Positions 567-23,172 of a DNA stretch of 23,400 nucleotides are shown in pieces (positions within the stretch are counted from its first letter, which is position 1; every line of letters begins with the position of its first letter). The notes under the pieces are model-generated. The model was not told the DNA's origin, searched no databases, and saw only the letters and a list, made by a program, of their open reading frames with translations. This DNA is from Myxococcota bacterium (GTDB lineage: Bacteria; Myxococcota_A; UBA796; CAJQPC01), in the NCBI GenBank assembly GCA_036012755.1, contig DASCPX010000011.1, positions 1-23,400 on the forward strand. Reading direction: 5' to 3'. The translations under genes and the position numbers were made by a program.

Positions 567-1901
567 TCAACGCGGAGCGAGGGCGTAGAGATCATCCAGC
601 GCCGTGGAGCGGCCCAGCCACTGGTCGTGCGCAGCTTGCCACTGAAGGTCCCAGACGACCTCGCCATCAGGGGTGACCTCGCGCATGCGAGAGGCGCTGC
701 CGTAGTTGTGCAGCACGTTGCCGCCCGAAAGCCGCCACGCCTCGCCCATCTCCTCGCCGAGGATGCCCTCTCCTTCGCCGTAGCTCCAGACCTCGGTGAG
801 CGTCTCCGTCTCGGCATCCATCTCGTACTCGCGCACGACCAGCTCCACGCCGTCCTCGCTGAGCATGGACGAGAGCATGAGGGTGCCGGACTCGGTGATG
901 TGGGGGCCGTGCTGCCACCAGAAGGCCGAGTCCTCCGGGTCGAAGGCCCAGGAGCCATCGAGGTGGCCGAACCAGTGAGAGGCCTCGCCCGCGGCCCGGT
1001 CGATGACGACGACGGAGTCCGTGGAGTAGGACGAGTACAGGTAGGTGTCGCTGTCCTCCAGGAACGTCAGGGTGTTCGAGCCGCAGTACCTGTTGATGCC
1101 GAGCGCCTCGTGGAACCCCCTGCAGCCCCAGATCTCGACCTCGTCCCCGTCGGGACCCTGCTCCACGATGGACTCGTCACGTCCGTCCGCGGCTACCCAG
1201 GCCAGGGTGCCGTCGGGGTGCTGGGTGAAGGGGTGATGCAGACCGGCGGTCTCCCAGATCCTCTCGACGCTCCCGTCGATGCGCACCTGGTGCACCTGGG
1301 AGGCGGCGCCTCCGTCGAAGGCACCCCAGAAGGAGTTGTGATCGATCAGCAGGGCTGTTCCATCGCTGGAAACCTGTGGCTGCAGCGTGACCCTGTCGGA
1401 TGGCGAGATGACCGCCCAGACCACCCGCCCCTGCCGGTCGACGATCAGGCTCCAGTAGGGCTCGCCCTGGTCGTTCTGGCCATCGTTGATCGAGGTGAAG
1501 ACCCAGACGAGCTCCGGGTCCCAGCCGGCTTCGTCGGACTCCAGCACCTCTGGTGTCGGGCACCCGTCGGGGAGCGGGCCTGTGGTGATCGAGATCTCGT
1601 CGCCCTGGATCTCGCCGTCGAGGACCGCGCGCAGGACGACCTCTGTGTCGTAGGGGATGCCCAATAGCAGCTCGGAGTGCGCTCCGGCGCCCAGGCCCCG
1701 GGCTGGCGAGCCCTGCCACAGTCCCTCGTCGAAGGAGTACTGCACGAGGACCTCTGCCTGGCCGTCCTGTTCCCACTCGAGCACGACGATCGAACCGATG
1801 GTGTCGTGCACGTCGGCCTCGAGATCGGTGAGGACGACAGCGGTGGGCGGGGGCTCGCCCTCGCACGCGACCAGCAGAGCCCAGGACTGCAGCGCTCTCA
1901 T
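567..1901 (-). CDS. arylsulfate sulfotransferase (ASST)-like beta-propeller lipoprotein, 444 aa
   Basis: ATG at 1901 preceded by GGAGAG; lipobox-like LLVAC; motifs IVDRQGRVVW, LHHPF, WQHGP, GEAWRLSGGNVL, REVTPDGEVVW. The ORF-track start at 2159 overlaps the divergent gene and was rejected. Confidence 0.75.
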   Translation of the reverse strand: MRALQSWALLVACEGEPPPTAVVLTDLEADVHDTIGSIVVLEWEQDGQAEVLVQYSFDEGLWQGSPARGLGAGAHSELLLGIPYDTEVVLRAVLDGEIQGDEISITTGPLPDGCPTPEVLESDEAGWDPELVWVFTSINDGQNDQGEPYWSLIVDRQGRVVWAVISPSDRVTLQPQVSSDGTALLIDHNSFWGAFDGGAASQVHQVRIDGSVERIWETAGLHHPFTQHPDGTLAWVAADGRDESIVEQGPDGDEVEIWGCRGFHEALGINRYCGSNTLTFLEDSDTYLYSSYSTDSVVVIDRAAGEASHWFGHLDGSWAFDPEDSAFWWQHGPHITESGTLMLSSMLSEDGVELVVREYEMDAETETLTEVWSYGEGEGILGEEMGEAWRLSGGNVLHNYGSASRMREVTPDGEVVWDLQWQAAHDQWLGRSTALDDLYALAPR

Positions 1902-5492: not shown

Positions 5493-6281
5493 TCAGAGCT
5501 CCAGGGGGGAGTCCCCCGCTCCGATGACGACGAGGTTCGGCAGCCCCTCGCGCTCGAGCTCTGCGAGGTCCCCGTCGACGTGCTCGGCGAAGGCGACGAT
5601 CAGCGCCGTGGGGTTGCTCTCCGCCACAGAGAGCAGCGAGTCGATGTCTGTCTTTTCACGAAGGAGCAGCGTCCGTCCCTCCGCCGTGAGGGCCTCCAGA
5701 TCCGCCGAGGTGTAGAGGCCGCCGACGACCGGCTTGCCGCGCCGCGTCGCCTGGACCGGAGCCCCCCTGCGAGCGCCGAGGAAGGTGCGCCCGAGCCACA
5801 CGCCGACCGCCAGGCCCAGGATCATCGCGACGGCGACCACCAGGAGCACCAGCTCGGGGGGCTGCGGCGGGCCGGGGTAATCGGGCGGTTGCACCGTCTC
5901 CGAGGGTGCCTCCGGGGGCTCGTGCTCCTCGAAGTCGGCGGGCTCGAAGGTGAGGTTCGGGCCGCGCTCCGTCATCAGGATGCGGACCCGCTCCCCCGCG
6001 TTGAGCGGCACCTCGTCGCGGAAGCCCTCCTCTTCGCCGACCAGCACAAGGACCTCTCCAGCACCCGGAGCAGGGACCTCGCCGGACCACACGCCGTCGC
6101 CTGCGACGAGGTCAGCGCCGGCGCCGTCGTCCGACAGGGGGACCTCCGTGCCAGCGATCAGGACCTGGGGGACGACGTCCACGACCTTGACCAGGACGCC
6201 GAACATCCCGTCGCCGACCGGCTTGCCGGGGAGCTCGGAGAGAGGCTCCCCTGCGAGGGAGAGAGAAAGAGCCAAAAGCAT
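5493..6281 (-). CDS. single-pass membrane protein with extracytoplasmic choice-of-anchor-X-like motif, 262 aa
   Basis: Short signal MLLALSLSLA; motif LSDDGAGADLVAGDGVWSG; Pro-rich linker; TM LVLLVVAVAMILGLAVGVWL followed by Arg residues; C-terminal domain of about 90 aa. Confidence 0.7.
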   Translation of the reverse strand: MLLALSLSLAGEPLSELPGKPVGDGMFGVLVKVVDVVPQVLIAGTEVPLSDDGAGADLVAGDGVWSGEVPAPGAGEVLVLVGEEEGFRDEVPLNAGERVRILMTERGPNLTFEPADFEEHEPPEAPSETVQPPDYPGPPQPPELVLLVVAVAMILGLAVGVWLGRTFLGARRGAPVQATRRGKPVVGGLYTSADLEALTAEGRTLLLREKTDIDSLLSVAESNPTALIVAFAEHVDGDLAELEREGLPNLVVIGAGDSPLEL

Positions 6282-6288
6282 GGGCCCC

Positions 6289-6294
6289 TATAAT
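6289..6294 (+). promoter_or_regulatory. consensus -10 box TATAAT, 6 nt before GTG 6301 (leaderless promoter)
   Basis: TATAAT-ccggcc-GTG with no Shine-Dalgarno, inside a 19-bp divergent gap. Confidence 0.65.
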
Positions 6295-6777: not shown

Positions 6778-8420
6778 AGCAGCACGCCCTCACCCTCGGG
6801 GCCTTCCTCCTCTTGTCCATCGCGTGGACGTGGCCGCTGGCGCTCGAGCCCACGACGACCGCGGTCAGCGGCTTCGACACCTGGGGGGTGGTGTGGACGG
6901 TCCACGCAGCCCAGAACCTCGACGCGACGCTGGTGACCGATGTCTCGGGCTGGCCGGTGGGGCAGGACCTGCGCCGCAGCGACAGCATGCTGCTGTTGTT
7001 GGCGGCCCGAGCGCTGCCCTTCCGCGTCGACCCCCTGCTCGTGGTCTCGCTGATCTGCGTGCTCGGGCCCGTCGTGAGCGCCTTCGCCGCAGAGCGTTGC
7101 GCCGCCGCCCTCGGCGCGAAGTGGCCCTGGTCGCTCATCGCCGGGGTCTCCTTCGGATTCCTGGGGATCTCCTCCGCGACCATCGCCGGCGGGCAGGTCT
7201 ATGCGCTCTTCAACCCCTGGCTCCCCCTGTTGGGCTGGGCCTGGGTCACCTCGACCTCTGCCAGCGGCACCTGGAGACACGGCGTCTGGGCAGGTCTCGC
7301 CTGGTTCCTCTGCCTGCTGACCACCGTCTACGTGGGCATCGCCGCCACCTTGCTCGTGCTGGCCGGACTGCCGCGCCTGTGGCGCTCTCGAGACCTCAAA
7401 CCGGCCCTGGCCGCCGCGGCCGTCGCGCTGCCGATGGGGCTGGCCTATGTGGCCCTGTTCGCTTCGAGCTCGATGCGCGCGGACCCGCCGATGATCGCGG
7501 ACCCGGTGCTGGTGCTCGAGATGGGCAGCACCACCCTCGCCGGCCTGGCGGGCGGATCCCGGAGCGCCGCGGCGCTCTTCCACGACGTCGTGCCGCTGGG
7601 CTGGACGGTGGTGGCGCTGGTGGCGCTGGCCCCGTGGGTCCTGAGGGGCCGGGAGACCCGCTGGTGGCTCGTGCTCGGGGTGCTCGCGCTGCTGTTGTCC
7701 ATCGGCCCGAGCCTGAGGCCGGAGAGCACGATGCGCGGCCTCTTCCCCTGGGTCCTGCGACCCTTCGCGACCGAGACCGTCGCCGCTTGGTTCCGCTTCC
7801 CGGTGCGGCTCTTGTGGGTGACCGGCCTGGCCTTCGGCGTCGTCGCCGCGCGCATGCTCACCCGGCTCGGCGAGCGCCCTCGGCTGGCAGCCCCGATCCT
7901 CCTGTTGGCCTTCGTCGAGGCGGTGCTCCTCTCAGGTCGACCCTGGAGCCCAGAGGTCCCGACGGTCCTGCCGAGCGCCTACGCCGCCACCCCAGAGGAC
8001 CGCGCCGTCCTCGACCTCTTCCCCCCCTCCGCCGGCCGCCCCCTCGACTACGAGCTGTACCACGTCGGTCAGACCTGCGCGTGGGCGGCGCTGCACGGTC
8101 GCCCGGTCTCCCAGTTCTGCCTCGAGACCAACATCGGGCAAGACCCGCGGGGGGAGCTCAGCGACTGGCTGCACGAACGGCTCCTGGCTGGGGGCGAGCT
8201 CGGCGACAGGCTCTCTGAGCTCGGCTTCGGGGCCATCGTCTTGAGACCGGACCACTACCTCCCGAACGACCGCGCGCTGCTCCTCGAGGGGCTGGAGAAG
8301 ACCTTCGGCGAGCCGGTCGCCGAGTCCTTCGACGGCGGAGAGCACCTCCTCGTCTTCGAGGTGCCGCCGAGTGATGCGGATCCGGTCTCGACCTGGAGGG
8401 CCCTTCACTCCTCCGGCTGA
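6774..8420 (+). CDS. multi-pass membrane protein, probable GT-C-fold glycosyltransferase (YfhO-like), 548 aa
   Basis: TM1 ending WTWP, Asp in first outer loop (SGFDTW), WPVG loop, roughly ten or more hydrophobic segments, RFPVR motif, soluble C-terminal domain (AVLDLFP...HGRPV...LGFGAIVL). Confidence 0.65.
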   Translation: MKQHALTLGAFLLLSIAWTWPLALEPTTTAVSGFDTWGVVWTVHAAQNLDATLVTDVSGWPVGQDLRRSDSMLLLLAARALPFRVDPLLVVSLICVLGPVVSAFAAERCAAALGAKWPWSLIAGVSFGFLGISSATIAGGQVYALFNPWLPLLGWAWVTSTSASGTWRHGVWAGLAWFLCLLTTVYVGIAATLLVLAGLPRLWRSRDLKPALAAAAVALPMGLAYVALFASSSMRADPPMIADPVLVLEMGSTTLAGLAGGSRSAAALFHDVVPLGWTVVALVALAPWVLRGRETRWWLVLGVLALLLSIGPSLRPESTMRGLFPWVLRPFATETVAAWFRFPVRLLWVTGLAFGVVAARMLTRLGERPRLAAPILLLAFVEAVLLSGRPWSPEVPTVLPSAYAATPEDRAVLDLFPPSAGRPLDYELYHVGQTCAWAALHGRPVSQFCLETNIGQDPRGELSDWLHERLLAGGELGDRLSELGFGAIVLRPDHYLPNDRALLLEGLEKTFGEPVAESFDGGEHLLVFEVPPSDADPVSTWRALHSSG

Positions 8421-10954
8421 GTGACCGCGCCCTCGCCGGTGCCGCGCACGTACACGACGTCTCGGCTGCGGAGCCCGATGTCGTCGATGGCTTCGACGAC
8501 GTAGCGGTTGCGGCCCGGCTGCACCTCCAGCGGCACGGACAGATCGACCCGTCTCCCCTCGCCGGAGTGGTAGGCGATCTTGTCACCCTCCGCCCAGACG
8601 ATGACGTGGTCGATCGCCGCGTCGTCGATGACGTTCACGTCAAGGGTGAACTCGCCGGCGGGCATGCTCAACGGGGACGCCACGTCCAGCGCTGGGGCCT
8701 GCAGGTGTGTCGAGCGCCCGTCGCGCGGTAGCTGGAAGGCGTAGTCCGCGACCTCGCCGAAGCGCGGTGTCTCGACGATGACGTGCAGGGGGAGCTCTTC
8801 GAGAGGGGTCTCGGACAGATCGAGCCCGAGGTGTACGACCCGCGTCTCCGAGTCGTCGAGCGCTGGGATGATGGCGTCGTACTCGGCCAGCTCGATGCCG
8901 GTGCTCTCCGGGTACTCGAAGCGCACGTGGAGCTGCATCAGCGGCTGTCTCGAGGTGTTCTCCACCTCGACGCGGACGTACTCGCCGTCCTCGCCCTTGA
9001 CCAGGGCGAGATCGAGGGCCAGCCGGGGACGCTCGACGCCGTCGTAGCCAAGGATGAACGCGCCTATTTCGGCGTCGGGGTGGCGGTCGGACTCGACGGT
9101 GGCGCTGACGCTGCTCTCCCGAGCCGGGGCCGAGGCGCGCACCTGGACGGTCGCCTCTCCGGTCTTCGTCTGGCCAGGCAACAGCACGCCGATCGGCAGG
9201 ACCCGCCGGTCCCAGACGGAGTCCGCGGCGTCCAGCCGTACCAGCACGCGGTGCAGGGGCTCGTCCCCGAGGTTCGTGACCTCGGCGATGAGCTGCGTGG
9301 AGCTGCCAGCGACGAGGGCCTCTTCCGTGTGCACATCGAGACGGACCCGAGGCTCCGGACCCGTGGTCTCGGCGGGCGCCCAGTCGATGCCCCGCGCGGC
9401 GAAGGTAGAGATCAGGCGCTGCTCCTCCTCCGCTCGGACGAGCTCGCGGATCTCGCCGGCTGCCTCGAGCACGTCTCCACGCTCCGAACCGCGCGAGGTG
9501 GCGAGCACCCTCACAGCCAGATCGACCCACAGGTCCTCTCGCTCCGGGGGTGGCTCCGCGTCCCGCCAGCCGGCGCTCTCGTCGACGAACAAGAGCGGCT
9601 CCGGACCCCCATCCTCGGCGCGGTCGTCCCGAACCTCGACCCCATCCTCGGAGAACAGGACACCGCCGACCGGAAGGTCCGCGGCGACCCCGTCTTCGTC
9701 GTGGATAGAGAGCCCGCCAGCGAGGAGGTACTCGGCGACGGTCAGCTTCAGGCGCGTGCCAGGCTCCATCGTGTAGAGCTTCTGGACCGTGCCCTTGCCG
9801 TAGGTCCGGGTCCCGATCAGGGCGGCGCGATCGAGCTCGCGCAGGGCACCGGCGAGGATCTCGGAGCCGCTCGCGGTCCGGTGGTTCTGCAGCACCACGA
9901 TGGGCACCGTGGGCTCGATGCCTGCGTCCTCCGCCCAGATGTGGGGCACCAGCCCGCGCACCTTGCCCCCGTCACGGCCCACGGTCCGGACGAGGTCGCC
10001 GCTGGTGAGGAAGGCATCCGCCGCGCGAGCCGACTGCAGCATCGAGCCGCCGGTGTTGTCGCGAAGGTCGATCACGAGGCCCCGCTCCAGCGCGCCGCGG
10101 GAGTCGAGATCGATGAGCGCGCGGCTCAGGTTGGCCTCGGTCAGCTCGCTGAAGTGGTCGATCCGGAGGTAGCCGAAGCCATCGCCAAGGTCCTTCCACT
10201 CCACGTTGGGGTCCTTGATCTCGTCGCGGGTGACGACGAAGGTGAGCTCCACCGGGTTGCCTTCGACGGTTCGACGGACGACGAGCTCGACGTCGGTGCC
10301 CTTGCGACCCGTGATGTGGTCGACCGCGTCCGTCACGGTCATGCCGACGGTCGAGGACCCGTCGATGCGCAGGAGCACGTCGCCGTCCTGGAGGCCGGCC
10401 CGAGACGCCGGGTTGTTCTCGAAGACCTCTTGCAGGTAGATCTCGTTGTCGGTGTCGTGGCGCGCGATGCGGGCGCCGATACCGAAGAAGGTGCCCTTGA
10501 GCCGCTTGTCGAAGGCCTTCACCTGCTCCCCGTAGAGCAGGCGGCTGTGCCGATCGAGGGCGTTGGTCGCGCCCTTGAGCAGCACGACGCGCAGATCCAG
10601 GTCCTCGTCGATCGGGCGAGCCGCGGACTGGGTCAGGTCCTCGAGCTCGCGCAGGCTGCGCTCCAGCGAGTTCCAACCACCGACCGTTACCGTTCCGAGC
10701 ACCTCGCCGTCGCCGACGCGCAGGGTCACGCTGGTGCCCTCCCGGTCGGCCATGAGCCACTCGACGTCGTCCTCCAGCTGCTGGGCGGCCTCGGCGAAGA
10801 GATCCTCTGCGACCAGGTCAGCGCGCCTCAGGTAGAGCGAGTCGATGCGGGAGAGCGTGTCGCTGTAGAGGTCGGGGGCGTCAGCCTCTGCTGGGAGGCT
10901 CGCCACCAGGCCCAAGAGCGCGACTAGGGAGAACTGGCGGAAGCGCGACCTCAC
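8405..10954 (-). CDS. S41 family carboxyl-terminal processing protease with PDZ domain and long Ig-like C-terminal extension, 849 aa
   Basis: Canonical signal peptide; FFGIGARI PDZ entry; GYLRIDHF, DLRDNTGG, TASGSEI (catalytic Ser), RTYGKGTVQ (catalytic Lys); beta-rich CARDB-like C-terminus. Confidence 0.93.
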   Translation of the reverse strand: MRSRFRQFSLVALLGLVASLPAEADAPDLYSDTLSRIDSLYLRRADLVAEDLFAEAAQQLEDDVEWLMADREGTSVTLRVGDGEVLGTVTVGGWNSLERSLRELEDLTQSAARPIDEDLDLRVVLLKGATNALDRHSRLLYGEQVKAFDKRLKGTFFGIGARIARHDTDNEIYLQEVFENNPASRAGLQDGDVLLRIDGSSTVGMTVTDAVDHITGRKGTDVELVVRRTVEGNPVELTFVVTRDEIKDPNVEWKDLGDGFGYLRIDHFSELTEANLSRALIDLDSRGALERGLVIDLRDNTGGSMLQSARAADAFLTSGDLVRTVGRDGGKVRGLVPHIWAEDAGIEPTVPIVVLQNHRTASGSEILAGALRELDRAALIGTRTYGKGTVQKLYTMEPGTRLKLTVAEYLLAGGLSIHDEDGVAADLPVGGVLFSEDGVEVRDDRAEDGGPEPLLFVDESAGWRDAEPPPEREDLWVDLAVRVLATSRGSERGDVLEAAGEIRELVRAEEEQRLISTFAARGIDWAPAETTGPEPRVRLDVHTEEALVAGSSTQLIAEVTNLGDEPLHRVLVRLDAADSVWDRRVLPIGVLLPGQTKTGEATVQVRASAPARESSVSATVESDRHPDAEIGAFILGYDGVERPRLALDLALVKGEDGEYVRVEVENTSRQPLMQLHVRFEYPESTGIELAEYDAIIPALDDSETRVVHLGLDLSETPLEELPLHVIVETPRFGEVADYAFQLPRDGRSTHLQAPALDVASPLSMPAGEFTLDVNVIDDAAIDHVIVWAEGDKIAYHSGEGRRVDLSVPLEVQPGRNRYVVEAIDDIGLRSRDVVYVRGTGEGAVTQPEE

Positions 10955-12891: not shown

Positions 12892-13901
12892 TCGCCTGCG
12901 CTGTCCCGGAACTCGTCAGCGTCTTGCGGACGGCCGGACACGACGTACTCGTCGGCTCCGATCCGCTGATCTACCTCGACCAGGCGGACCTGGTGGTGGT
13001 CGACTTCCGCGACGGACCGGTCAACGGGCGCGACTGGGTCCGCCACCTCGTCAAGCAGCTCGACCGCATCCCGCTGTTGGTGATCTGCGCCACCCTCGAG
13101 GAGATGGACGAGGCCCTCGCGGGGGGCGGAGCCGACGTCCTGCGCCGCCCCTTGTCGGCGGTCGTGCTCGAGAACCGCGCCAGCGCCTGCCTGGCGCGCA
13201 CCCTGGAGCACAGCCCCAGCTCCACACCCGGGGGGGCACAGGATCTCCTCGAGCGCCTCGTCACCGCCTGCCCGGACCCGGTCATCGCGGCGGATCTGCG
13301 CGGCAACCTCCTGGTCTTCTCCCGCGCAGCAGAGGCCATCCTCGGCTACGAAGCGCGCGAGGTCCTCGACGGGCGCCTGCACGTCTCCGAGCTCTACGCA
13401 GAGCCGGACGACGCCGCTCGCATCATGAAGGCGATGAAGGCCTCTGAAGATCGTGCCGCCATCGGCGTGCAGGTGCGCCTGCGCACTCGCCGGGGCGAGG
13501 CCGTGCCCGTGCACCTCTCGTCCAGCCTGGTGCACGACTTCGCCGGCCGGATCGTGGCCAGCGTCGGCATCTTCAGGGACGAGCGCCACTCCCACGAGCT
13601 GGCCATGCGGCTGGCGAGCGCCACCGATCAGCTGGTCGCCAGCGAGAAGCGGGCGGCGACGGTCGCCGTGGCTGGGGCGACTGCACACGAACTCAACCAG
13701 CCGCTGACCTCTGTGATGGGCATCGTCGAGTTGTTGCGCCTCGACAAGGAACTGCCCGAGAAGGTGCAGGACCGCATGGAACGAGCCTATGTCCAGCTCG
13801 ACCGCATGGCAGAGATCGTGCGGAATCTATCGCAGGTCACCGGCTACGGGACGAAGCCCTACACAGACGGTCAGGAGATCCTGGACCTCGACAAGCAGTG
13901 A
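12882..13901 (+). CDS. signalling protein: degenerate receiver, PAS, and HisKA phosphoacceptor helix; no ATPase domain; 339 aa
   Basis: ATG 12882 with GGAG upstream; DLVVVDF...GADVLRRPL receiver-like region; PAS (PDPVIAADLRGNLLVFSRAAEAILGY...SVGIFRD); H-box AHELNQPL; ends about 55 aa later. Confidence 0.85.
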   Translation: MALIACAVPELVSVLRTAGHDVLVGSDPLIYLDQADLVVVDFRDGPVNGRDWVRHLVKQLDRIPLLVICATLEEMDEALAGGGADVLRRPLSAVVLENRASACLARTLEHSPSSTPGGAQDLLERLVTACPDPVIAADLRGNLLVFSRAAEAILGYEAREVLDGRLHVSELYAEPDDAARIMKAMKASEDRAAIGVQVRLRTRRGEAVPVHLSSSLVHDFAGRIVASVGIFRDERHSHELAMRLASATDQLVASEKRAATVAVAGATAHELNQPLTSVMGIVELLRLDKELPEKVQDRMERAYVQLDRMAEIVRNLSQVTGYGTKPYTDGQEILDLDKQ

Positions 13902-14944
13902 TCGGCGTCCTCACCAGCGGGGGCGACGCCCCGGGCATGAACGCGGCGATCCACGCCGTCGTGAAGCTGGCCAGGCGAAAGGGCCTCGACGCCCTGGGGA
14001 TCGAAGCTGGCTACGAGGGGCTCATGGACGGTCGGGGTCGAGTGCTCCGACTCGACGAGGTCGATCCCATCGCCGGCTGGGGGGGCACCGTCCTCGGCTC
14101 GGCCCGCTCGGCGGAGTTCCGGACCGCGGAGGGTCGGGCGAAAGCGGCCAGGGCGCTGGATACGCGGGGTCTCATCGTCATCGGGGGCAACGGCTCGCTC
14201 ACCGGCGCTCACCTGCTGCACGCGGAGCAGGGCGTGCCCGTCGTCGGCATCCCGGCGAGCATCGACAACGACATCGCCTGCTCTTCCACGGCCATCGGGG
14301 TCGACACGGCACTCAACACGATCGTGTCTGCATGCGACCGCATCTCGGACACGGCCCGAGCCCACAGGCGGGTCTTCGTCGTCGAGGTCATGGGCCGCGA
14401 CTGCGGCTACCTGGCGATGGCCAGCAGCGTCGCCGCAGGAGCGGATGCCTGTCTCTTCCGCGAGTCGGGCAAGGACGAAGAACAGATCCTGGCCGAACTG
14501 AGCGAGGTCGTGCTGGCAGGCTTCTCGCCACAGCGGAACAAGAAGCGCATCCTGGTCATCAAGGCCGAGGGTGTCCAGGTGCCGACACAGCGCATCGTGC
14601 AGCGCCTCCAGACTGTAGTCGATGGGGCTCTGAAGGGGGTGACCGTGCGAGCCACCGTGCTCGGCCACCTCGTTCGGGGTGGAGCCCCCTCCTACGCGGA
14701 CCGCGCTGTCGCTGGCAGGCTCGCGGTGGCCGCGGTGAGCGCCCTGCTCTCCGGACAGAGCGACGTGATGGTCGGCTGGCAGCCCTGGGACGACGACGGC
14801 GAGCCCACCAGGGACCCGTCGGTCCGGCTCTTCCCCCTGGCCACCGTGCTGTCCCGGACAGAGGCCCTGCTCGACGGCACGAGCGAGATCACCAGGCGTC
14901 GCGTCGCGATGATGGAAGCCCACGCCGGGGTCCTGGCGATCTGA
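13898..14944 (+). CDS. pfkA: 6-phosphofructokinase (PfkA family, probably ATP-dependent), 348 aa
   Basis: IGVLTSGGDAPGMNAA, GGTVLGSAR, IGGNGS, PASIDND, VEVMGRDCG, TVLGHLVRGG; GTGA overlap. Confidence 0.95.
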   Translation: MIGVLTSGGDAPGMNAAIHAVVKLARRKGLDALGIEAGYEGLMDGRGRVLRLDEVDPIAGWGGTVLGSARSAEFRTAEGRAKAARALDTRGLIVIGGNGSLTGAHLLHAEQGVPVVGIPASIDNDIACSSTAIGVDTALNTIVSACDRISDTARAHRRVFVVEVMGRDCGYLAMASSVAAGADACLFRESGKDEEQILAELSEVVLAGFSPQRNKKRILVIKAEGVQVPTQRIVQRLQTVVDGALKGVTVRATVLGHLVRGGAPSYADRAVAGRLAVAAVSALLSGQSDVMVGWQPWDDDGEPTRDPSVRLFPLATVLSRTEALLDGTSEITRRRVAMMEAHAGVLAI

Positions 14945-14957: not shown

Positions 14958-15263
14958 ATGAACCGACTCCCGCCCGCCTTCGACGAGGTCGTCCTCATCT
15001 GCAACAACACCCGTCCGCCCGGCGCGCCGAAGCACAGCTGCGGGGACCACGGCGCCTGGGAGCTGCGCAAGTGGCTCAAGCGCGAGCTGAAGAAGGAGGG
15101 GCTGTGGGGAGAGAAGGTCCGCGTAGTGCTCACGAGCTGCCTGGACTTCTGCCCCAGCGAAGGGGTCGTCTGCAGCTTCGACCGCGGCCGGAGCCTGGTG
15201 AAGATCGACGCACAGACAGACCGGGAGATCGTGCTCGAACGCATCCGCGAACTCTGCGGCTGA
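14958..15263 (+). CDS. thioredoxin-like [2Fe-2S] ferredoxin, 101 aa
   Basis: LICNNTRPPGAPKHSC ... VRVVLTSCLDFCPSEG four-Cys pattern. Confidence 0.88.
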   Translation: MNRLPPAFDEVVLICNNTRPPGAPKHSCGDHGAWELRKWLKRELKKEGLWGEKVRVVLTSCLDFCPSEGVVCSFDRGRSLVKIDAQTDREIVLERIRELCG

Positions 15264-15779
15264 GGGCGCCCTGGTCTTCCAGCTCTGGGAACTGGAGCTC
15301 GCCGGAGAAGCTCACGTCACCGAGGAAGCGGTACTCGCCGGAGAAGGTGACGATCCAGGTCTCGGAGTCCCATGTGCCGTTGGCGTCGAGGAGGTCCTCT
15401 GAAAACGAGCCATCGGACTCGTCGAAGCGGTAGACCTGCGCGACGCCCTTGTCGTCGTCGAGCACCAGGCCGCGGTAATCGGGACTGGGGACCGGGTGGG
15501 TCTGGTAGTCGCAGATGTTCTCGCCATCGAGCTCGGCGACGTAGAAGTGGTCGCAGAGAGCGCAGGCGTCCTGGAGTGCGGCGAGGTCGTCCTCGTCGTC
15601 GACCGTGGTGCCGGTCTCGACCATGTCGTCCTCGCAGTCGTAGTCGTCCGGCCAGGTGTCGAGCTCGAAGTGGACCTGCGAGGTGTACCGGCCGAAGTCG
15701 GGCTCGGGCGCGGAGGCCCCGCTGTCCGGAATCACCGGGATCTTGGGCTGGCACGCGAGGCTGAGAGCAGGAGGGTCAT
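15130..15779 (-). pseudogene. acidic hypothetical lipoprotein with a 1-nt frameshift in its signal peptide and a probable lost stop codon near 15271-15273
   Basis: ATG 15779 (3-nt gap after the upstream stop) gives MTLLL, then the protein continues in another frame as LSLACQPKIPVIPDSG...; body contains CALC and YDCED; the tail after PELED is unprotein-like and overlaps the ferredoxin by 134 bp. Confidence 0.6.
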
Positions 15780-15782
15780 GGT

Positions 15783-17945
15783 TCAGTCCAGCGACTTGTA
15801 GTGAAGGGGCTCGTGGACGCCCTCCGAGACGACCCAGTAGCCCGTGCCGTCGACGGAGAAGGCCATGGCCTCGGCCTGGCGTTCGCTGGGCGCCTCTCCG
15901 TCACAGGGTTCGCTCGAAAAAGCGGTGGCGAGGTCGTAGGCCTGGTCCCGCCGCATGATCCAGAGGTCCGAGTAGGTCCGGACACCGATGAGGTCTCCCA
16001 GGGGAGAGAAGTCCATCGCGGTCGTCGCGCCGCTCCCGGAGTAGGGAGCCTCCTTGTACTCGATGTCCGCTATCCAGACGAGCTCGGCGACATCCCCGTC
16101 GGCGTGGGGGGCGGCCTTGACGAAGACCCTGCTGTGGCCGTCGTAGTCCTTTGTCAGCACGACGAGGTCGCCGCTGACGGGGTCGATCGCGATGGCCTCG
16201 CTGTTGTAAGAGCCATCGGGGTAGGTCAGCGTCATGATGCCGAAGTCCTCGACGAGGATCTCGGCGGGGGCCTCCGCGTCGGTGTAGACCTCTGGCTCGG
16301 GCACGAGCAGGATCGTGTAGGTCTCGCGCATCATGCCGTTGTCGCCGACGTCGCCGACGAAGAGCACGCTGTCTCCGTCGATCTCTCCGAGCGCGATGTC
16401 CTCCCAGTCCCTCGCGGGGCCATCGATCTCGAAGTGGCCGAGGTCGGCGCCGTCTTGGCCGAAGGCAAAGAGCACGGGGGGGTTGCCGGCGTCGTTGTGG
16501 GTCCAGAACACCCCTGGATTGTCCTTGCTCTCAGCCAGCCCGGAGGCCTCGATGAGCTCGTCGCTGGCAAGCTCTCCGTGGGTCTGGTTCGGGCCGACGA
16601 CCGGGCAGTCCGCCGGCTCGACGACGACATCGATCGAGACCTCGCTCCGGGTGCCGTCCTCCTCTTCGACCACCGCGGACACCGGGAAGGTGCCAGAGGC
16701 CAGGTACAGCGCGTCGGCCGTGAGGCTCTCGACCGTGACGTCCTCGAGCGTCCAGGTGACACCCGCGACCTCGACGCAGTCGATGGAGAACTCGACGTCC
16801 AGAGGCACCTCGCCGGCGGCGGGCAGCGCCCAGATCTCGGGGCCATCGCCCTCGCAAGGCTGCTCCTGAGGCAGGAGCTCGACGAACCAGATCGGCTGCT
16901 CGGTCCCCTCGCTCAGGGTGTAGATGCCCGAGGAGTCCTCTGAGAAGACCAGGGCCTCGCCGGCAGGTTCGTCCGCGAAGGTGAGCGGACAGGGCTCCGC
17001 TGCGACGGCGGCAGCCAGGCTCTGGGAGCCATCGCGCAGCCAGAGCGCGGCGCCCTCGGTCGTGCGCAGGACGAGGTAGGCGCCGTGAGGGCTGAGCTCA
17101 CCACCGGTGGGACTGCCTTCGAGCTCCAGCGTGGCGATGAGCTCCAGCTCGGTCCGAGTGTCGGCCTCGTGGGGCGGCGCCTTCCGGTAGAGCCCGACCT
17201 CGCCCGAGGTGTCGACGGACACCAGCAGCAGGTCGCCGGTGAGGGGATCGAAGATGAGCGTGTTGGAATCGAGCGAGCGCCCCTCTGGGTAGTCGAGGTC
17301 CATCGAAGCCCAGTCCTCGACGGGGTTCTCGGCGGGATCGGGCACCATGAAGACGGTGACGAAGTCTCGCGAGTTGGTGTTGTCGCCGATGTCGCCGACG
17401 TAGAGGACGCCCTCGCCGGCGGTCATGTCCTCCCAGTCGATGGCCTCGGCCTCGGAGAGCTCGAAGATGCCGAGGTCGTCGCCCTCCGAGCTCATGGCGA
17501 AGAGCCGCGCGATGTCCCCGGAGTCGTTGTGGGACCAGAGCCCGAACTCGCCGAGCGCCAGGCCAGATGCCTCCGTCAGCTCGAGGTTCTCCACGACGCC
17601 GAGCTCGACAGGATCGAGCTGTTCGGGGCACTCGAGCGCTCCGACCTCGATCTCGATCTCGGCGCTGCCCGAGCGTCCCTTGGTGTCCGAGACCGTGAGC
17701 TCCACGCGGTGGGTACCCGAGGCGACGAAGGTGTAGTCGAGGACCGGACCGGTCAGGGTGGTGCCGTCCTCGAAGAGCCACAGGGCCTCGAAGTCCTCTT
17801 CGCAGGTCGACTCCGCGGTCAGCTCGACCGGCAGCGGCGCGAAGCCGTGGTCCCGGTCGAAGGCGATGTCCGCCTCGAGGGCGCAGCGCTCCCGCAGGGG
17901 CGGGTCGATGTGTGTGGGGAGCTTGCAGGCGAGGAGAAGGAGCAC
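15783..17945 (-). CDS. lipoprotein with two tandem [PKD + acidic beta-propeller-like] modules, 720 aa
   Basis: MLLLLAC; PKD-like GFAPLPVELTA...SGTHRVELTVSD and GEVPLDVEFS...SGTFPVSAVV; duplicated motifs EASGLA, W[ST]HND[SA]G, DWED[MI], VGD[IV]GDN, YP[ED]G, DP[LV][TS]GDL, SEG. Confidence 0.8.
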   Translation of the reverse strand: MLLLLACKLPTHIDPPLRERCALEADIAFDRDHGFAPLPVELTAESTCEEDFEALWLFEDGTTLTGPVLDYTFVASGTHRVELTVSDTKGRSGSAEIEIEVGALECPEQLDPVELGVVENLELTEASGLALGEFGLWSHNDSGDIARLFAMSSEGDDLGIFELSEAEAIDWEDMTAGEGVLYVGDIGDNTNSRDFVTVFMVPDPAENPVEDWASMDLDYPEGRSLDSNTLIFDPLTGDLLLVSVDTSGEVGLYRKAPPHEADTRTELELIATLELEGSPTGGELSPHGAYLVLRTTEGAALWLRDGSQSLAAAVAAEPCPLTFADEPAGEALVFSEDSSGIYTLSEGTEQPIWFVELLPQEQPCEGDGPEIWALPAAGEVPLDVEFSIDCVEVAGVTWTLEDVTVESLTADALYLASGTFPVSAVVEEEDGTRSEVSIDVVVEPADCPVVGPNQTHGELASDELIEASGLAESKDNPGVFWTHNDAGNPPVLFAFGQDGADLGHFEIDGPARDWEDIALGEIDGDSVLFVGDVGDNGMMRETYTILLVPEPEVYTDAEAPAEILVEDFGIMTLTYPDGSYNSEAIAIDPVSGDLVVLTKDYDGHSRVFVKAAPHADGDVAELVWIADIEYKEAPYSGSGATTAMDFSPLGDLIGVRTYSDLWIMRRDQAYDLATAFSSEPCDGEAPSERQAEAMAFSVDGTGYWVVSEGVHEPLHYKSLD

Positions 17946-18227
17946 TCAGAAACAGTAGCTCACCAGCTCGGCGTCCGAGGCGCTCGAAGACGGCACGTCG
18001 GTGCAGGTGCTCTCGCCGAAGCAGTCTCCGTCCGCAGCGCAGGGCCTCGCGCAGCTCATCGAGCCGAGGACGGAAGCGCACTGCTCCCCGCCGGGGCAGT
18101 CGGAGTCGATCTCGCAGGCCGGCCCCTGGCAGATGCCGTTCACGCAGGCGCCCTCGGGGCATCCGCGGTCGCTGGAGCAGGTCGCGTCGAGCTCGCTGAG
18201 GCAGCTCACCAGGAGGTAGATCAGCAT
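17946..18227 (-). CDS. small Cys-rich lipoprotein with three 4-Cys repeats, 93 aa
   Basis: ATG 18227 after GGAGGAAGG; MLIYLLVSC then 12 further Cys in repeats starting CSSDRGC, CEIDSDC, CAADGDC. Confidence 0.8.
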   Translation of the reverse strand: MLIYLLVSCLSELDATCSSDRGCPEGACVNGICQGPACEIDSDCPGGEQCASVLGSMSCARPCAADGDCFGESTCTDVPSSSASDAELVSYCF

Positions 18228-19553
18228 CCTTCCTCCACGAGCAGGACGGCGAGGTCCTCCATGCGTCCAGCCTCGCGGGAGAGGCTGACGCCGAGGTCCT
18301 CTTCCATGCCCTCGAGCAGATCGGCGGCGCCGGCGAGGCGGATCGCGGCTGCGTCGGCGAGGGCCGCGGCCTCGAAGACATCCACGAGACCACTGCATGA
18401 GCCCTCTGCGGCCTCCAGCGCGAGGGCCTCGTCGACGAGGGCGGCGAAGCGGAAGGCGCCCAGGCCGTCTGCGTGGATGGTCGTGAAGGGGTAGGCCTGG
18501 GTGTCGCCGGCGACCACATCCACCAAGGCCCCGTCGACCACGAGGCTGCCCAGGTGCGTGCCCTCTGGGAGAGCCAGCAGGTCGCCCTCGACCGGGCGCA
18601 GTACGAAGGCACGGGACCTGTCGGGGATGACACTGCCGAGCCAGGCACGATCGAGGGACTCGTCGCCCTCGTGCCCCAGCAGCCAGGTGTCCACGACCTC
18701 CCAGCCCTCCTCCGGTCGCATGACGAGCTCGACGTCGTTGGCCGCCGGGGCCAGGGAGCTGGCCAGGAGCTCCTCGAGGTCCTCGAGCTCCGCGAAGGCC
18801 ATGCGGCCGCCGGGGATGCGCTCCAGCTCCCATGCGAGCTCTCCGCCGAGGCGATTGCCAGCGCCCACCAGCGTGAGCCCGATGCCCGCGGCCCCTCGAG
18901 GGCGAGCGACATCCAGGAGCGCGTCTGTGTCGGATGGATCGTCCGTGACCAGCAGGACCCTGGAGCGCCGGTCGGGTCCGTGGTTCTTCGCGGCCTCCGA
19001 CAACGCCGTCTCCAGCCCGAGGACCACGTCGGTGGCGCCGTCCGAGTCGAGGTAGAGGGCGTCCTGGATCCGCCTGCGCTCAGAGCGCTCCCATCGAGCG
19101 CGGCGAGCGCCTGGTCCTCGCGCTGTCGGTGAAGGTGACGAGCGCCCCGAGATCGTCCAGGTCGAGCTCGGAGACCCGCTGGTCCAGACCCAGCCGCAGC
19201 GCGTCCATGCGGTCGGCCCCCATGGAGCCCGAGGTGTCGATGGCGATCACGAGGTTCTCGTCCACAGCGCTGGGCTCGGGCTCGAAGTCGAGGACCACCA
19301 GCACGCCATCCTCGCCCTCTGTGGAGCTGAACAGCGCCGTGGACAGCCGCGCGCACAGGTCGCCGAGGCAGTCTCCGTCCAGCGGTGTGTCCTGGCTCCA
19401 GAAGACAGCGGGGACGACGTAGTCCTCGCCCAGCCGAGGGACACGGCCCTCATCGATGGCGGCCTGGACACCGGCGAGCTCGTCGATGCCCGGGAGCCCC
19501 TCGACAACGTCGTTGTCGATGGTGGTGCCCGAGCAGGCCAGGAGCAGGATCAC
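18221..19553 (-). pseudogene. von Willebrand factor A (vWA) domain lipoprotein, frameshifted near 19080-19120
   Basis: 5' part MILLLAC...NLVIAIDTSGSMG...ALVTFTDSA (MIDAS DxSxS) stops at 19080; the domain resumes in another frame as ERRRIQDALYLDSDGATDVVLGLETA...RVLLVTDD...GIGLTLVGAG. Confidence 0.8.
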
Positions 19554-20230
19554 TGGAACAGGGCCTGCACTTCTTCCTTGTCGGAGGAGAAGGTGAACTG
19601 CTCGTTGAGCACGTAGCTGTTCTCCGGGTCGACGACGCGGGGCCGCAGGATGCGCACGACCTCGACCTGGTCGCTGCCGAAGGACAGGAGCTCGACGAGT
19701 TGGGCGACCTGGACGCAGGTGAAGTGGTGCGAGGTCGCGGCCGAGCGCACCAGGTCGAGCTGGTCCGAGCTGAAGGACTCGCCCTGGACTGCCGCGACGA
19801 GCTTCGTGAAGGCCGCCGCGTCCATCGGCTGTGGCGGACCCAGGGGGGGCTCGACCGGTGGGGGCCTGCCCTCTGTCTCGTCGAAGCTCACGTTCACCGA
19901 GAGCCCGAGCGGGCTGACGCCGGCGTGGAGGTCGACGACCTCTGTCTTCGCCATGTTCGGAAGCTGGCCTTCGCCGGTGACGCGCAGGGCGCGGTTTGCA
20001 TACTTCAAGCGCACCTGGTGATCGACGGGCACGTCGACCTTCTTCTCGGCGAGCAGCTCGCCACCGGCGGTGGTCACCCGGACCTCGTGCAGTCCGCCGG
20101 CCAGATCCAGCGCGGAGGCGACCATGGTGTCGCCGAAGTCGAGCACCTCGCCGTCGATCGTGACCACGACGGGGGAGCTGGCCTGGACCTGGACCTCGCC
20201 GGCCAGCGCGGTGGAGAGGAAGAACAACAT
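19550..20230 (-). CDS. exported DUF4476 domain protein with N-terminal PEGA-like beta domain, 226 aa
   Basis: Signal MLFFLSTALA; VVVTIDG...GLHEVRV; C-terminal MDAAAFTKLVAAVQGESFSSDQL...FTCVQV...FGSDQVEV...VVDPEN...FTFSSDKE. Confidence 0.82.
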   Translation of the reverse strand: MLFFLSTALAGEVQVQASSPVVVTIDGEVLDFGDTMVASALDLAGGLHEVRVTTAGGELLAEKKVDVPVDHQVRLKYANRALRVTGEGQLPNMAKTEVVDLHAGVSPLGLSVNVSFDETEGRPPPVEPPLGPPQPMDAAAFTKLVAAVQGESFSSDQLDLVRSAATSHHFTCVQVAQLVELLSFGSDQVEVVRILRPRVVDPENSYVLNEQFTFSSDKEEVQALFQ

Positions 20231-20237
20231 GGAGGCC

Positions 20238-21836
20238 TCAGTAGAGCTGGTAGATGCGGACGCGGTCGTCCTCTGCCAGGAGCACGAAGTTCGCACGTAT
20301 CATTCCCGCCGAGCGCACGAAGGCCTCCGCGATCAGCAGGTCCTTGTGCACGACGACGTAGCGCACACCTTGCTCCTCTGCGGTGCGGGAGACCTCGTCG
20401 GGGCCCTCGGACAGCCGCGCAGCAGTGAACACCTCGAGCGCAGCGCGGTTGGCTCCAGTGTTCAGCGAGGCCGCCAGGGGCTTGCCGTGGAGGACCTGCT
20501 CGTAGAGGTAGGCCCGGCTCGCAGTGACCGGCAGGTTCACCACCGCGCCGGCGGGAGCGTCGTCGAGGGCCTCCAGGGCGGGCGAGACGGGGACCTCGCT
20601 GAGCTCTGGCAGTCCAGCGGTCGGTGCGACGAAGAGGAACTCCAGCGCCACAACCGCCCCGGCGACGAGCCCGAGCCAGCGGTCCTCTCGCCTGGGCAGT
20701 GCTCGCTCGGCCATGGCTGCCAGCGCAAGGACCGCGGCACCGCTGAACCTGTACAGCAGCGACAGGGCGTCGAAGCCCGGCAGCTTCTCGAGCGCCAGGT
20801 ACGGCAGCGGGATCGCCCGTCCCTTGAAGCTGGCGGGGAAGCCGTCGAGGACGACGACCGGCCCCAGCGCGAGCACGATGGCGATAGCGAGAGCGATCCA
20901 CCAGGGCGCGGTGTCCCGACGACGCCAGGTCGCCACCAGGGCCAACAAGATCAAGGTGAAGCCGAGGTAGCTGGTGTGGACGTAGTCCCCGGGGCGCCCC
21001 TCCAGGTGCTGGAAGTCCGGGCTGCGGTACGGGCCCGGGACGAAGAAGGTGCGGACGTCCGCGGCGCCGAGGGTGCGGCGCAGCCTCGCCATGTCGTCGT
21101 CGTTCTTGATGTGGACCAGGCCGTCTTCTGCGCGGGCGACCTCGCGCACAGCGCGGGCCCAGGGAAGGGTCGCCCCCACCGCGAGCACGCCGACGAGGGC
21201 CAGGCGTGGCAGCCGGTGCACGACTAGCAGACCCAGGAGCAGGCACCAGGCGCCAATGCCCGCATACCAGCCGGACAGCGCGCAGGTGAACATCGCCAGC
21301 GCCGCGAGGCAGATCCGCCAGGCGCCGCCTCGCTCGACGACGGCCAACAGGGCCAGCCCGGCCAGGGGCAGCCAGCCCGCCGCGATGGCCTCTGAGGAGC
21401 CGTTGTGGACGTGGCTCAGGACGACCGGGGCCAGCATGTAGCCAAGGCCGGCGACGTAGCCCGTGCCCCCCAGCTTGCGGCCGAACGCGTGCGCCGCGAA
21501 GCCAGAGAAGACCAGGTGGCCGAGGACGAGCAGGCTGTATGCGACGACCGGCCCGAAGGCGGCGACGAGGGGGAAGCCCAGGAGCCCGTTGAGGGGGTCG
21601 GCCACGACGAGGCGTCCGCCGATGGGGAACTGGAGCAGATCGGTGTGGAGTGGCAGGCGACCCGACGCCAGCTCCTCGTACACGAACCACAACGACCAGA
21701 TGGAGTTCCAGGCGTCCGAGCGCTCCGCCCCCGGGATCACCCCGCCCGGATCGAGCACGACCGGCCACGTGAGCCAGGCGGCGACCAGGGGGTAGAGCGA
21801 CAACGGGAGCCACCGGCGCAACGTCGCGGCGCTCAA
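20238..21836 (-). CDS. second multi-pass membrane protein, probable GT-C-fold glycosyltransferase, 532 aa
   Basis: TTG start; WLTWP, RSDAWNSIW (loop Asp), FPIGG, YLG, LALGP, LPY, YRF; C-terminal AVVNLP...QVLHGKPL...GVRYVVVH; same layout as 6774-8420. Confidence 0.68.
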   Translation of the reverse strand: MSAATLRRWLPLSLYPLVAAWLTWPVVLDPGGVIPGAERSDAWNSIWSLWFVYEELASGRLPLHTDLLQFPIGGRLVVADPLNGLLGFPLVAAFGPVVAYSLLVLGHLVFSGFAAHAFGRKLGGTGYVAGLGYMLAPVVLSHVHNGSSEAIAAGWLPLAGLALLAVVERGGAWRICLAALAMFTCALSGWYAGIGAWCLLLGLLVVHRLPRLALVGVLAVGATLPWARAVREVARAEDGLVHIKNDDDMARLRRTLGAADVRTFFVPGPYRSPDFQHLEGRPGDYVHTSYLGFTLILLALVATWRRRDTAPWWIALAIAIVLALGPVVVLDGFPASFKGRAIPLPYLALEKLPGFDALSLLYRFSGAAVLALAAMAERALPRREDRWLGLVAGAVVALEFLFVAPTAGLPELSEVPVSPALEALDDAPAGAVVNLPVTASRAYLYEQVLHGKPLAASLNTGANRAALEVFTAARLSEGPDEVSRTAEEQGVRYVVVHKDLLIAEAFVRSAGMIRANFVLLAEDDRVRIYQLY

Positions 21837-21855
21837 GCAGTGGCACCCGGAGGAG

Positions 21856-22239
21856 TCACTCGCAGCAGTCCACGTCGAAGGTGATCCGCTCGGCGTCGGC
21901 GCCGGTGCTGACAGCCACCACGATCTGCCAGGCGCCCTCTACGTGGAAGCGCATCGGCGAGGCCGTCCAGAGCCCGCCTGCTTCACTGGCCATCTGGGGG
22001 TCGACGTCCATCCTGAGGTCATCCTCGGGCATGAGCGCGTCGGCGACGACGGTGAGCTCCGTCGGGGGCGTGACGATCAGGCTGAGCGCGAAGTCCTCGT
22101 CGAAGGGGATCGGAGTGGGCTCGGTGGTGTACTCGACGGTCCAGGTGCCCCCATCGGTGGTCCCGCTGGTGGCGAGGTTCAGCCCGCTGTCGCCCGAAGG
22201 ATCGGAGCAGGCGAGCAGCGCGAGGACGACCTTGAGCAC
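21856..22239 (-). CDS. YtkA/FixH-like Ig-fold lipoprotein, 127 aa
   Basis: MLKVVLALLAC; PTPIPFDEDFAL, DALMPE...M, MRFHVEGAWQIVVAV, ERITFDV; ends DCCE. Confidence 0.7.
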   Translation of the reverse strand: MLKVVLALLACSDPSGDSGLNLATSGTTDGGTWTVEYTTEPTPIPFDEDFALSLIVTPPTELTVVADALMPEDDLRMDVDPQMASEAGGLWTASPMRFHVEGAWQIVVAVSTGADAERITFDVDCCE

Positions 22240-22245
22240 ATCCGG

Positions 22246-22251
22246 AGCTTA
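22246..22251 (-). promoter_or_regulatory. putative -10 box TAAGCT, 6 nt before GTG 22239 (leaderless promoter of the envelope run)
   Basis: Minus strand TAAGCT-ccggat-GTG; no good SD. Confidence 0.55.
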
Positions 22252-22305
22252 GCCGGCTCAAGATCTCGCGCCAGGGACCGATTGGGCCCAAGACCTGGAG
22301 TCATC

Positions 22306-23172
22306 ATGGACCACGCTTGGACCCGCTTCGACGCCCGCTGGAACCTCTCTCCGAACACCCTCGGGAGCGAGCCCGTCTTCGTGCTCGCCGCCGGATGGCG
22401 CAGCGGCTCGACGCTGCTCCAGCGCCTGGTCTGCAGCTCCGGCGAGGTCCTCGTCTGGGGGGAGCCCTACGGCCGCGCCGGGCTCATCCCGGCCCTGACC
22501 CGCTCGGCGATGGCCCTGCGCGACGACTGGCCGACAGAGGGCCACTTCCCGGCTGACCTCGACCGCCTCCAGGACAAGTGGATCGCGAACCTCTATCCCC
22601 CGCCAGAGGCCCTGCGCGGCAGCATCGAGGCCATGCTCGAGACGCTGCTCGCCGAGCCGGCGCGCGCTCGTGGCTTCAAGCGCTTCGGGCTCAAGGAGGT
22701 CCGCCTCCAGGCCCTCGATGCGCGCCTGCTGCACTGGATCTACCCCGACGCCCGCTTCCTCTTCCTCGTCCGCAACCCCTGGGACGCCTGGTCGAGCTGC
22801 AAGGGCAGCGAGTGGTTCCTCCACTGGCCGGACCGCATCGTCTCGACCGCCGCGCAGTACGCCGTCCACTGGCGCCGCACGGTGGAGAGCTTCCTCCGCT
22901 GGCCCGGCGACGAGGGGATCCTCGTTCGCTACGAGGACATGAACCACCCCGACTTCGACCTCGGCTACCTGGCGAACCACTGCCGCCTGTCCTTCATCGA
23001 CGGCTCGGTGCTCGAGCACAAGCTCCGGGGCATGAAGAAGCCCCCGATCCCGCTCACGCTGCTCGAGACCGAGCAGATCCGCGCCGCAGCGGGCGAGCTG
23101 GCCCAGATCTGCGGCTACGAGGGCCCCACGACCCGACCCCAAGCGCAGCACGTCGCGCGACTCGCGCCATAG
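22306..23172 (+). CDS. PAPS-dependent sulfotransferase family protein, 288 aa
   Basis: ATG 22306 after GGAG; 5'-PSB loop PVFVLAAGWRSGSTLLQR; WGEP; GLKE; 3'-PB FLVRNPWDAWSS; VRYED. Confidence 0.88.
   Translation: MDHAWTRFDARWNLSPNTLGSEPVFVLAAGWRSGSTLLQRLVCSSGEVLVWGEPYGRAGLIPALTRSAMALRDDWPTEGHFPADLDRLQDKWIANLYPPPEALRGSIEAMLETLLAEPARARGFKRFGLKEVRLQALDARLLHWIYPDARFLFLVRNPWDAWSSCKGSEWFLHWPDRIVSTAAQYAVHWRRTVESFLRWPGDEGILVRYEDMNHPDFDLGYLANHCRLSFIDGSVLEHKLRGMKKPPIPLTLLETEQIRAAAGELAQICGYEGPTTRPQAQHVARLAP

Follow-up and report, generated by a model that had tools for sequence, protein, structure and literature searches.

Very short, uncharged putative export signals in one order of myxobacteria-like bacteria

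We examined a 23,400 bp stretch of DNA (the window; positions 1 to 23,400 of contig DASCPX010000011.1, referred to as C11, assembly GCA_036012755.1) from an uncultured bacterium whose genome, here G000 (6.73 Mb, 68.4% GC, 96% complete), occurs in marine metagenomes. Many of its predicted envelope proteins start with signal peptides reduced to a few hydrophobic residues and a cleavage box, and this trait is real, lineage-wide and, as far as we searched, undescribed, being a variant of known signals. An initial annotation of the window had listed a series of such N-termini, several of them fixed by stop codons, with an S41 protease as internal control. All were found where it had placed them, as were the TGA directly before GTG 17945, the TAA at the fourth codon before 22239, the TAG at the third codon before 6281 and the GTGA overlap at 19553, and the protease (family by Pfam) does have a canonical, R-rich signal. 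The claimed lack of n-region charge holds for most of the listed examples but not for those starting at 22239 (K3) and 1901 (R2, Cys13).

Genes of G000 were called with a hexamer model trained on the genome itself (5937 genes, 92% coding), and all counts use the 5553 called genes that were closed at the 5′ end and encoded at least 80 amino acids. The genome-wide excess of early cysteines implied by the initial annotation is there: a lipobox Cys was found at residues 6–11 in 683 of the 5553 genes, where about 8 are expected by chance as drawn from 71,786 internal start codons. Positions 6, 7, 8, 9, 10 and 11 accounted for 9, 123, 232, 169, 104 and 46 genes, respectively, with the mode at Cys8, and 637 of the 683 had their Cys at 6–10, that is, a signal of less than 10 residues. 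Only 65 genes had a lipobox Cys at 12–14 and 116 at 15–35. K or R preceded the Cys in 5 of the 683 short signals versus 93 of the 116 long ones (Cys 15–35). When the lipobox rule was dropped to avoid circularity, 745 genes with a hydrophobic start and first Cys at 6–11 remained, of which 691 had A, G or S at −1 (29% for internal Cys) and 459 had L at −3. Large hydrophobic residues made up 83% of the positions before the lipobox, a figure partly built into the selection rule, and the core was slightly more hydrophobic in short than in canonical signals (3.05 vs 2.81, p 0.0003). Among the remaining genes, A-x-A boxes ending at residues 8–13 were found in 359, with about 38 expected; 309 genes had uncharged A-x-A signals of at most 13 residues, false positives among them. 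Taken together, the two short forms, with tags of 5–13 residues, covered 992 of the 5553 genes, about 1 in 6, again including false positives. A Tat signal is excluded for the short signals, as they have no K/R; RR-like motifs were found in 13 other genes. Foreign islands were also considered as a source and rejected, since short-signal genes are at genome GC and on all 68 contigs longer than 20 kb.

The starts themselves carry several markers. Among the 683 short lipoprotein signals, TANNNT was detected at −14 to −11 in 137 and GGAG at −12 to −9 in 201, 161 starts abut or overlap the stop of the upstream gene, and in 161 the Cys lies within 16 codons of an in-frame stop. At least one marker was present in 506 of the 683, while one of the first three was found in 2.5% of 24,510 internal control codons. 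In 117 genes the Cys is within 13 codons of an in-frame stop, so that no codon could yield a signal of normal length. A stop four codons upstream often coincides with the −10 box, as 420 genes start at this offset compared with 71–110 at others. This also applies to the TAA before 22239, which is present as annotated and lies inside a TAAGCT −10 box at −12 of a predicted leaderless-type start; a TATAAT at −12 speaks for GTG 6301 in the same way. TANNNT peaks 12 bases 5′ of the start codon in G000, where leaderless-type genes are predicted to be common, and the −10/ATG pattern exceeds its own control in most genomes of the class. Among operon-first genes, leaderless-type starts were seen in 26% of those with short signals versus 6% of the canonical lipoproteins, which hints that new −10/ATG pairs may trim signals. 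Leaderless transcription as the cause of the trait was rejected, since the same promoter type is overrepresented in trait-free orders too.

It could be argued that the true starts are upstream, reached by near-cognate codons, stop read-through or frameshifting, and that the signals are of normal length. A candidate upstream start codon is available in 285 of the 683 genes, 28 of the 117 stop-limited cases follow the in-frame stop of a called gene, and 37 of the 188 longer lipobox signals have an ATG inside them. On the other hand, there is no candidate codon in 398 of the 683, the GGAG peak at −12 to −9 and TANNNT at −12 belong to the short start, TAA, TAG and TGA are all represented among the 117, and the same caller recovered canonical signals in other genomes. 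The stops were moreover confirmed in independent contigs, and we regard upstream starts as very improbable. These contigs are short (depth 3–5) and come from X7 and X8, runs of two studies not marked as source of the assembly. They are identical to the window over 17900–18248, 18987–19307, 15563–16063 and 21989–22306, with three substitutions and no indels outside those stretches. The matched stretches include the TGA-GTG at 17945, the start at 18227, the box before 22239 and both frameshifts described below; thus, assembly error, for which we left uncounted two runs that are possibly the source (X1 and X2), is ruled out at the key stops.

Homologues place the lipobox Cys of the window proteins in a wider context. 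In the best 30 loci of 86 genomes matching the protein that starts at 17945, the lipobox Cys was kept in 28, and the signals before it ranged from canonical ones (about 15–24 residues, with K/R) down to 6–9 residues, two of which were stop-limited. That distant homologues have normal-length signals before the same Cys argues that it is the true lipobox Cys. Close homologues keep the short form rather than a normal-length signal: three homologues of the 22239 protein (66–67% identity) had Cys8–11 signals without K/R.

To see which proteins carry short signals, 149 of the 992 were scanned with Pfam over their first 420 residues; they lie in 20 dense windows, three of which were chosen for BamA, TolC and a binding protein, so that the sample is not random. 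A match was obtained for 73, including POTRA (BamA), SurA, OEP (TolC-like), HlyD, ZnuA, SBP_bac_5, PD40 and Omp85, and further YceG, PhoD, S8 and many MopE/FG-GAP repeats. The BamA signal has 13 residues and no K/R. K/R was absent from the BamA n-region in 16 of the 18 high-trait genomes that could be read (at least 10 pattern matches/Mb; 3 unreadable) and present there in 18 of the 20 low-trait genomes that could be read (at most 5/Mb; 5 unreadable), a comparison made by eye, with 4 intermediate rows left out and related genomes that are not independent. One may suppose that these proteins remain cytoplasmic, with a short N-terminus, hydrophobic or acylated, as their tether, and a few matches, namely two ABC permeases and one carbamoyltransferase, are indeed cytoplasmic families or false positives. 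BamA, SurA, TolC-like and binding proteins cannot function there, and the short-signal proteins are much more acidic than the rest (−0.138 vs −0.038 per residue), which leaves this explanation hardly probable. A large expansion of short-signal putative lipoproteins with Cu-binding_MopE and FG-GAP repeats was noted at L278–L297, many of which share R-N-K-D at the start of the mature chain. A YceG/MltG-family protein (L289:8322–9293) has a short lipobox right after a stop, in place of the usual membrane helix. BamD (YfiO; L092–L096) had an A-x-A signal and no lipobox in 5 of 5 class genomes read, and thus seems not to be a lipoprotein there.

The short-signal trait is confined to one order, which we take to be GTDB UBA796, a name that occurs in PMC11495043 and PMC11821767 and whose link to G000 is our assumption, and its level varies about 80-fold inside the order. 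The order is myxobacteria-like, and records labelled Myxococcota or ‘Deltaproteobacteria UBA2385’ also carry short signals. The phosphofructokinase encoded in the window matched records labelled proteobacterium best, followed by Myxococcales/Myxococcota, and a SecY scan for named relatives yielded one close record. Matches to the pattern Met-h5-Ala-Cys numbered 0–4 per genome in the other orders of the phylum (342 genomes) and reached 90 inside the order. A wider short-signal pattern, counted over 131 genomes of the class, gave 4.8–32.6 matches per Mb in family f7 (n = 25), 2.0–29.7 in f1 (18), 2.5–19.8 in f6 (8), about 6 in f4 (2), 0.9–7.5 in f3 (31), 0.4–7.5 in f5 (12) and 0.8–2.2 in f2 (9), compared with 0–4.1 in other orders (26). 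In samples of 100–200 kb, short, middle and long lipobox signals numbered 3, 5 and 8 in the low-trait genome G004, 8, 2 and 7 in the high-trait G030, and 0, 0 and 5 in another order; the caller, with its training on G000, misses genes in genomes of lower GC. A quick SecY tree placed high-trait genomes in several places, and separate origins of the high level are thereby suggested. A pattern scan of all GTDB returned at least 120 stretches; among the 80 listed, most matches outside the group proved to be closed frames, AT-rich frames or pieces of canonical signals, and five non-group genomes had 1–3 matches each. Five records with multiple matches bear labels such as Enterobacteriaceae, Klebsiella and Alphaproteobacteria, and their BamA is 51–56% identical to that of G000. 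As BamA identity to G000 is 41–84% inside the order and 38–45% in other orders, they are probably mislabelled members of the order. The genomes with the trait at L539–L618 include several whose depositor labels (e.g. Enterobacteriaceae, Klebsiella, Alphaproteobacteria, Bifidobacterium) look wrong.

G000 encodes the complete standard pathway as judged by homology: one secA, one secY, one ffh, three S26 (LepB-family) peptidases, five lgt, two lspA, two lolA matches and one lnt over the HMM cut-off. LspA and one Lgt align to the solved enzymes with their motifs kept, and SecY keeps I278, I408 and the F67-S68-G69 plug motif. The initial annotation had favoured adapted Sec/Lgt/LspA machinery or another route. 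Such a reading, in which the signals are real but depend on a specialised Lgt paralogue that might act ahead of translocation, on export via SRP/YidC or on a SecYEG or LepB tuned differently, would fit the five divergent lgt and two lspA of G000, the Tyr that its first Lgt has in place of the E. coli His in GGxxFHGG, a shift that reaches BamA genome-wide, and a trait that stops at the order boundary. The comparison across genomes points the other way. Matches to lgt (2–7 per genome) and lspA (0–3) occurred across the class, low-trait genomes and other orders included, at any trait level (the metagenome-assembled genomes are incomplete), and the high-trait G437, G434, G454, G457 and G395 each show a single lspA. 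The C127-type Lgt occurs at high and low trait levels alike, with close matches in the low-trait G019 and G341, and was not found in 8 genomes of family f11; thus, a dedicated lgt or lspA paralogue was rejected, as neither copy number nor this Lgt type follows the trait. SecY S282→A, which looked prl-like when two genomes were compared with two, failed in 71 sequences: it is also found in low-trait genera and is absent from 16 of 16 sampled genomes of the high-trait f7. The same 71 sequences revealed no trait-linked change in the SecY plug, pore ring or lateral gate, and 53 SecA sequences no diagnostic residue, the best contrasts being conservative, e.g. R→K. The SecA 289–294 stretch (E. coli numbering), considered for a role that we take from general knowledge, was shortened alike in high- and low-trait genomes. 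No obvious dedicated gene was seen by eye beside lgt, lspA, lnt, lepB, secA or ffh. With canonical signals coexisting in the same genome, we consider adapted machinery unlikely, and what stands of the original interpretation is the lineage-wide use of minimal putative export and lipidation signals without an n-region. Apart from this, an lspA-lspA-lgt-lgt cluster plus three further divergent lgt genes was observed at L081–L087, and a second, divergent secA in most sampled genomes of f11, a family of a neighbouring order (L222).

Our preferred explanation, which we hold as probable, is that ordinary Sec, Lgt, LspA and LepB handle signals stripped to a Leu core and a cleavage box; we infer export, lipidation and cleavage from sequence. 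The short signals would be Sec signal peptides pared down, by loss of the n-region and of most of the spacer, to Met, a Leu-rich core of 3–8 residues and a cleavage box (L-x-[AGS]-C for Lgt/LspA; A-x-A for LepB). Such a short hydrophobic core would suffice for SecA or SRP and to open the SecY lateral gate. Lgt, LspA, Lnt and LepB act at the outer leaflet. A peptide that lacks a charge to anchor it at the cytoplasmic face could slide to that leaflet and need not span the bilayer. Seven residues measure about 10 Å as a helix and about 24 Å extended, less than the core of about 30 Å, so that the peptide is probably not anchored cytoplasmically. Lol sorting would then proceed normally. Throughout the order, the machinery would tolerate long and short signals, and the short form would have spread gene by gene, to very different levels between genera. 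A variant in which the proteins are exported and diacylglycerylated while the 5–10-residue peptide often stays uncleaved, as a small extra anchor, draws on the peptide being much shorter than the helix that LspA is thought to bind. The −1/−3 preferences fit cleavage boxes, A-x-A signals on BamA and SurA imply cleavage, and Lnt and LolA are present, and we judge this variant improbable.

Several observations weigh against the explanation by ordinary machinery or against the counts on which it draws. No marker is carried by 177 of the 683 starts, the 285 genes mentioned above have an upstream ATG, GTG, TTG, CTG or ATH and with it potentially a longer, charged signal, and the gene calls rest on our own hexamer caller. 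The acidity of the mature N-terminus is the same as after canonical signals (p 0.07–0.35); charge compensation by an acidic mature N-terminus was rejected on this ground. About 80 canonical lipoproteins remain in G000 and the LolA signal is canonical in 16 of 17 high-trait genomes, for which reason the short form may not be suited to every client. That the shift is genome-wide and extends to BamA speaks for a trans-acting change, and none was found in a residue comparison that spanned SecY and SecA, not SecE, SecG, YidC, SecDF, LepB, Lgt or LspA. Somewhat less than even odds are given by us to the broader claim that as many as about 1000 proteins per genome, among them BamA, are exported and lipidated across the order via signals of 5–13 residues unable to cross the membrane as a helix, in which case either the loop-insertion model would fail (a neutral peptide moving to the outer leaflet, or the Cys being lipidated first) or the export machinery would have changed.

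Compared with known systems, the short lipoprotein signals resemble Sec/SPII signals in their hydrophobic core, L-x-[AGS]-C lipobox, small +2 residues and Pro/Gly/Asp-rich tether, and in that Lgt, LspA, Lnt and LolA are encoded in G000, but differ in having 5–10 residues and, in the short form, no K/R. Likewise, the A-x-A signals share with Sec/SPI the hydrophobic core, the box and clients such as BamA, SurA, TolC-like and binding proteins, but are uncharged and 8–13 residues long in 309 genes, some of them false positives. The short signals thus fail two defining features of both classes, the basic n-region and the length. Textbook signals have about 20 residues and carry a positive charge. 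Lipoprotein signals of 10–25 residues are given in a 2026 review (PMC13721041), while a lipoproteome study reports a mean Cys position of 21.4 and uses a search pattern, G+LPP, that demands R/K (PMC13068155). In the available portion of a third source the lipobox consensus is given with no shortest length (PMC6139136). The E. coli prlA suppressors I90N and S282R make Sec accept defective signals (PMC8256087). Unlike such laboratory mutants and engineered signals, which work with reduced efficiency, the signals here are natural, occur in about 1000 genes and are accompanied by no prl-like SecY change that tracks the trait. Engineered charge-free poly-Leu signals are likewise accepted by Sec. 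Several lgt and lspA copies per genome across the class recall the paralogy known from myxobacteria, where Myxococcus xanthus has four lspA, but the copy number is independent of the trait. No description of the trait was found in open PubMed Central and bioRxiv, the latter without supplements.

The features of the window are listed in Table 1. As to the mature folds proposed initially, PKD was recovered by Pfam, the vWA-like protein had no Pfam match although its DxSxS motif is visible, and the disulfide-repeat (WAP/Dickkopf) matches of the 93-aa protein were weak, at or under the cut-off.

Table 1 Features identified in the window (contig C11 of G000)
Feature	Position	Strand	Remarks
Lipoprotein signal, 7 codons, Cys7	17925..17945	-	Directly 3′ of the upstream gene's in-frame TGA; identical letters in independent-study contig
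PKD-domain putative lipoprotein, 720 aa, internally duplicated	15783..17945	-	Pfam PKD_4 E 4.6e-14; lipobox Cys in 28/30 homologue loci
Cys-rich putative lipoprotein, 93 aa, Cys9	17946..18227; signal 18201-18227	-	Shine-Dalgarno-like site at -9
vWA-like putative lipoprotein, Cys7	18221..19553; signal 19533-19553	-	GTGA overlap; frameshift near 19100 splits gene
DUF4476 protein, uncharged 10-residue A-x-A signal	19550..20230; signal 20201-20230	-	N-terminus read and Pfam
YtkA-like putative lipoprotein, Cys11, single Lys at position 3	21856..22239	-	Atlas YtkA look-alikes, score 0.94, TM 0.79
TAAGCT -10 box at -12 of GTG 22239	22246..22251	-	Leaderless-type start predicted from sequence; contains TAA upstream of gene
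Frameshifted putative lipoprotein gene	15130..15779	-	Frame of short signal differs from that of lipobox and body
Protein with uncharged 10-residue A-x-A signal	5493..6281	-	TAG three codons upstream
TATAAT -10 box at -12 of GTG 6301	6289..6294	+	Sits between two divergent genes
Protein with uncharged 13-residue signal and hydrophobic C-terminal segment	6301..6777	+	Read from sequence
Arylsulfotransferase-like putative lipoprotein, Cys13, Arg2 (short yet charged)	567..1901	-	N-terminus and Pfam
S41 protease, canonical basic signal (internal control)	8405..10954	-	N-terminus and Pfam

Two genes of one operon (15130–15779 and 18221–19553) are frameshifted identically across independent samples. 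The letters around the frameshift near 19100 are the same in run X7 and those of the 15779 gene in run X8, so both frameshifts are real in the population, and the operon may be undergoing decay. The 15130–15779 gene, with intact homologues bearing short lipoboxes in G001 and G002, runs beyond its expected end into the convergent gene. The divergent genes at 6281 and 6301 are only 19 bases apart with TATAAT between them, possibly a two-way leaderless promoter. Two multi-pass membrane proteins with no Pfam match (6774–8420 and 20238–21836) adjoin short-signal genes and presumably, by eye, resemble glycosyltransferase-type membrane proteins. Also identified were tandem DUF4140/DUF4139 genes (1969–5489) and, labelled by eye, a LarB/LarC-like pair with a PAS sensor and a phosphofructokinase after it (10997–14944).

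If these signals function as proposed, the accepted natural minimum for bacterial signal peptides would be roughly halved, and a basic n-region would be dispensable genome-wide, BamA included. Long and short homologue signals in sister genera would then serve as matched pairs for studying n-region function and how a cleavage site at residue 6–10 reaches Lgt, LspA and LepB. Search patterns that require K/R, such as G+LPP (PMC13068155), would miss 678 of the 683 genes, and pattern-based lipoprotein catalogues of the order would hence fall badly short. An export and lipidation tag of 6–7 residues would also be useful in biotechnology, if functional in other hosts.

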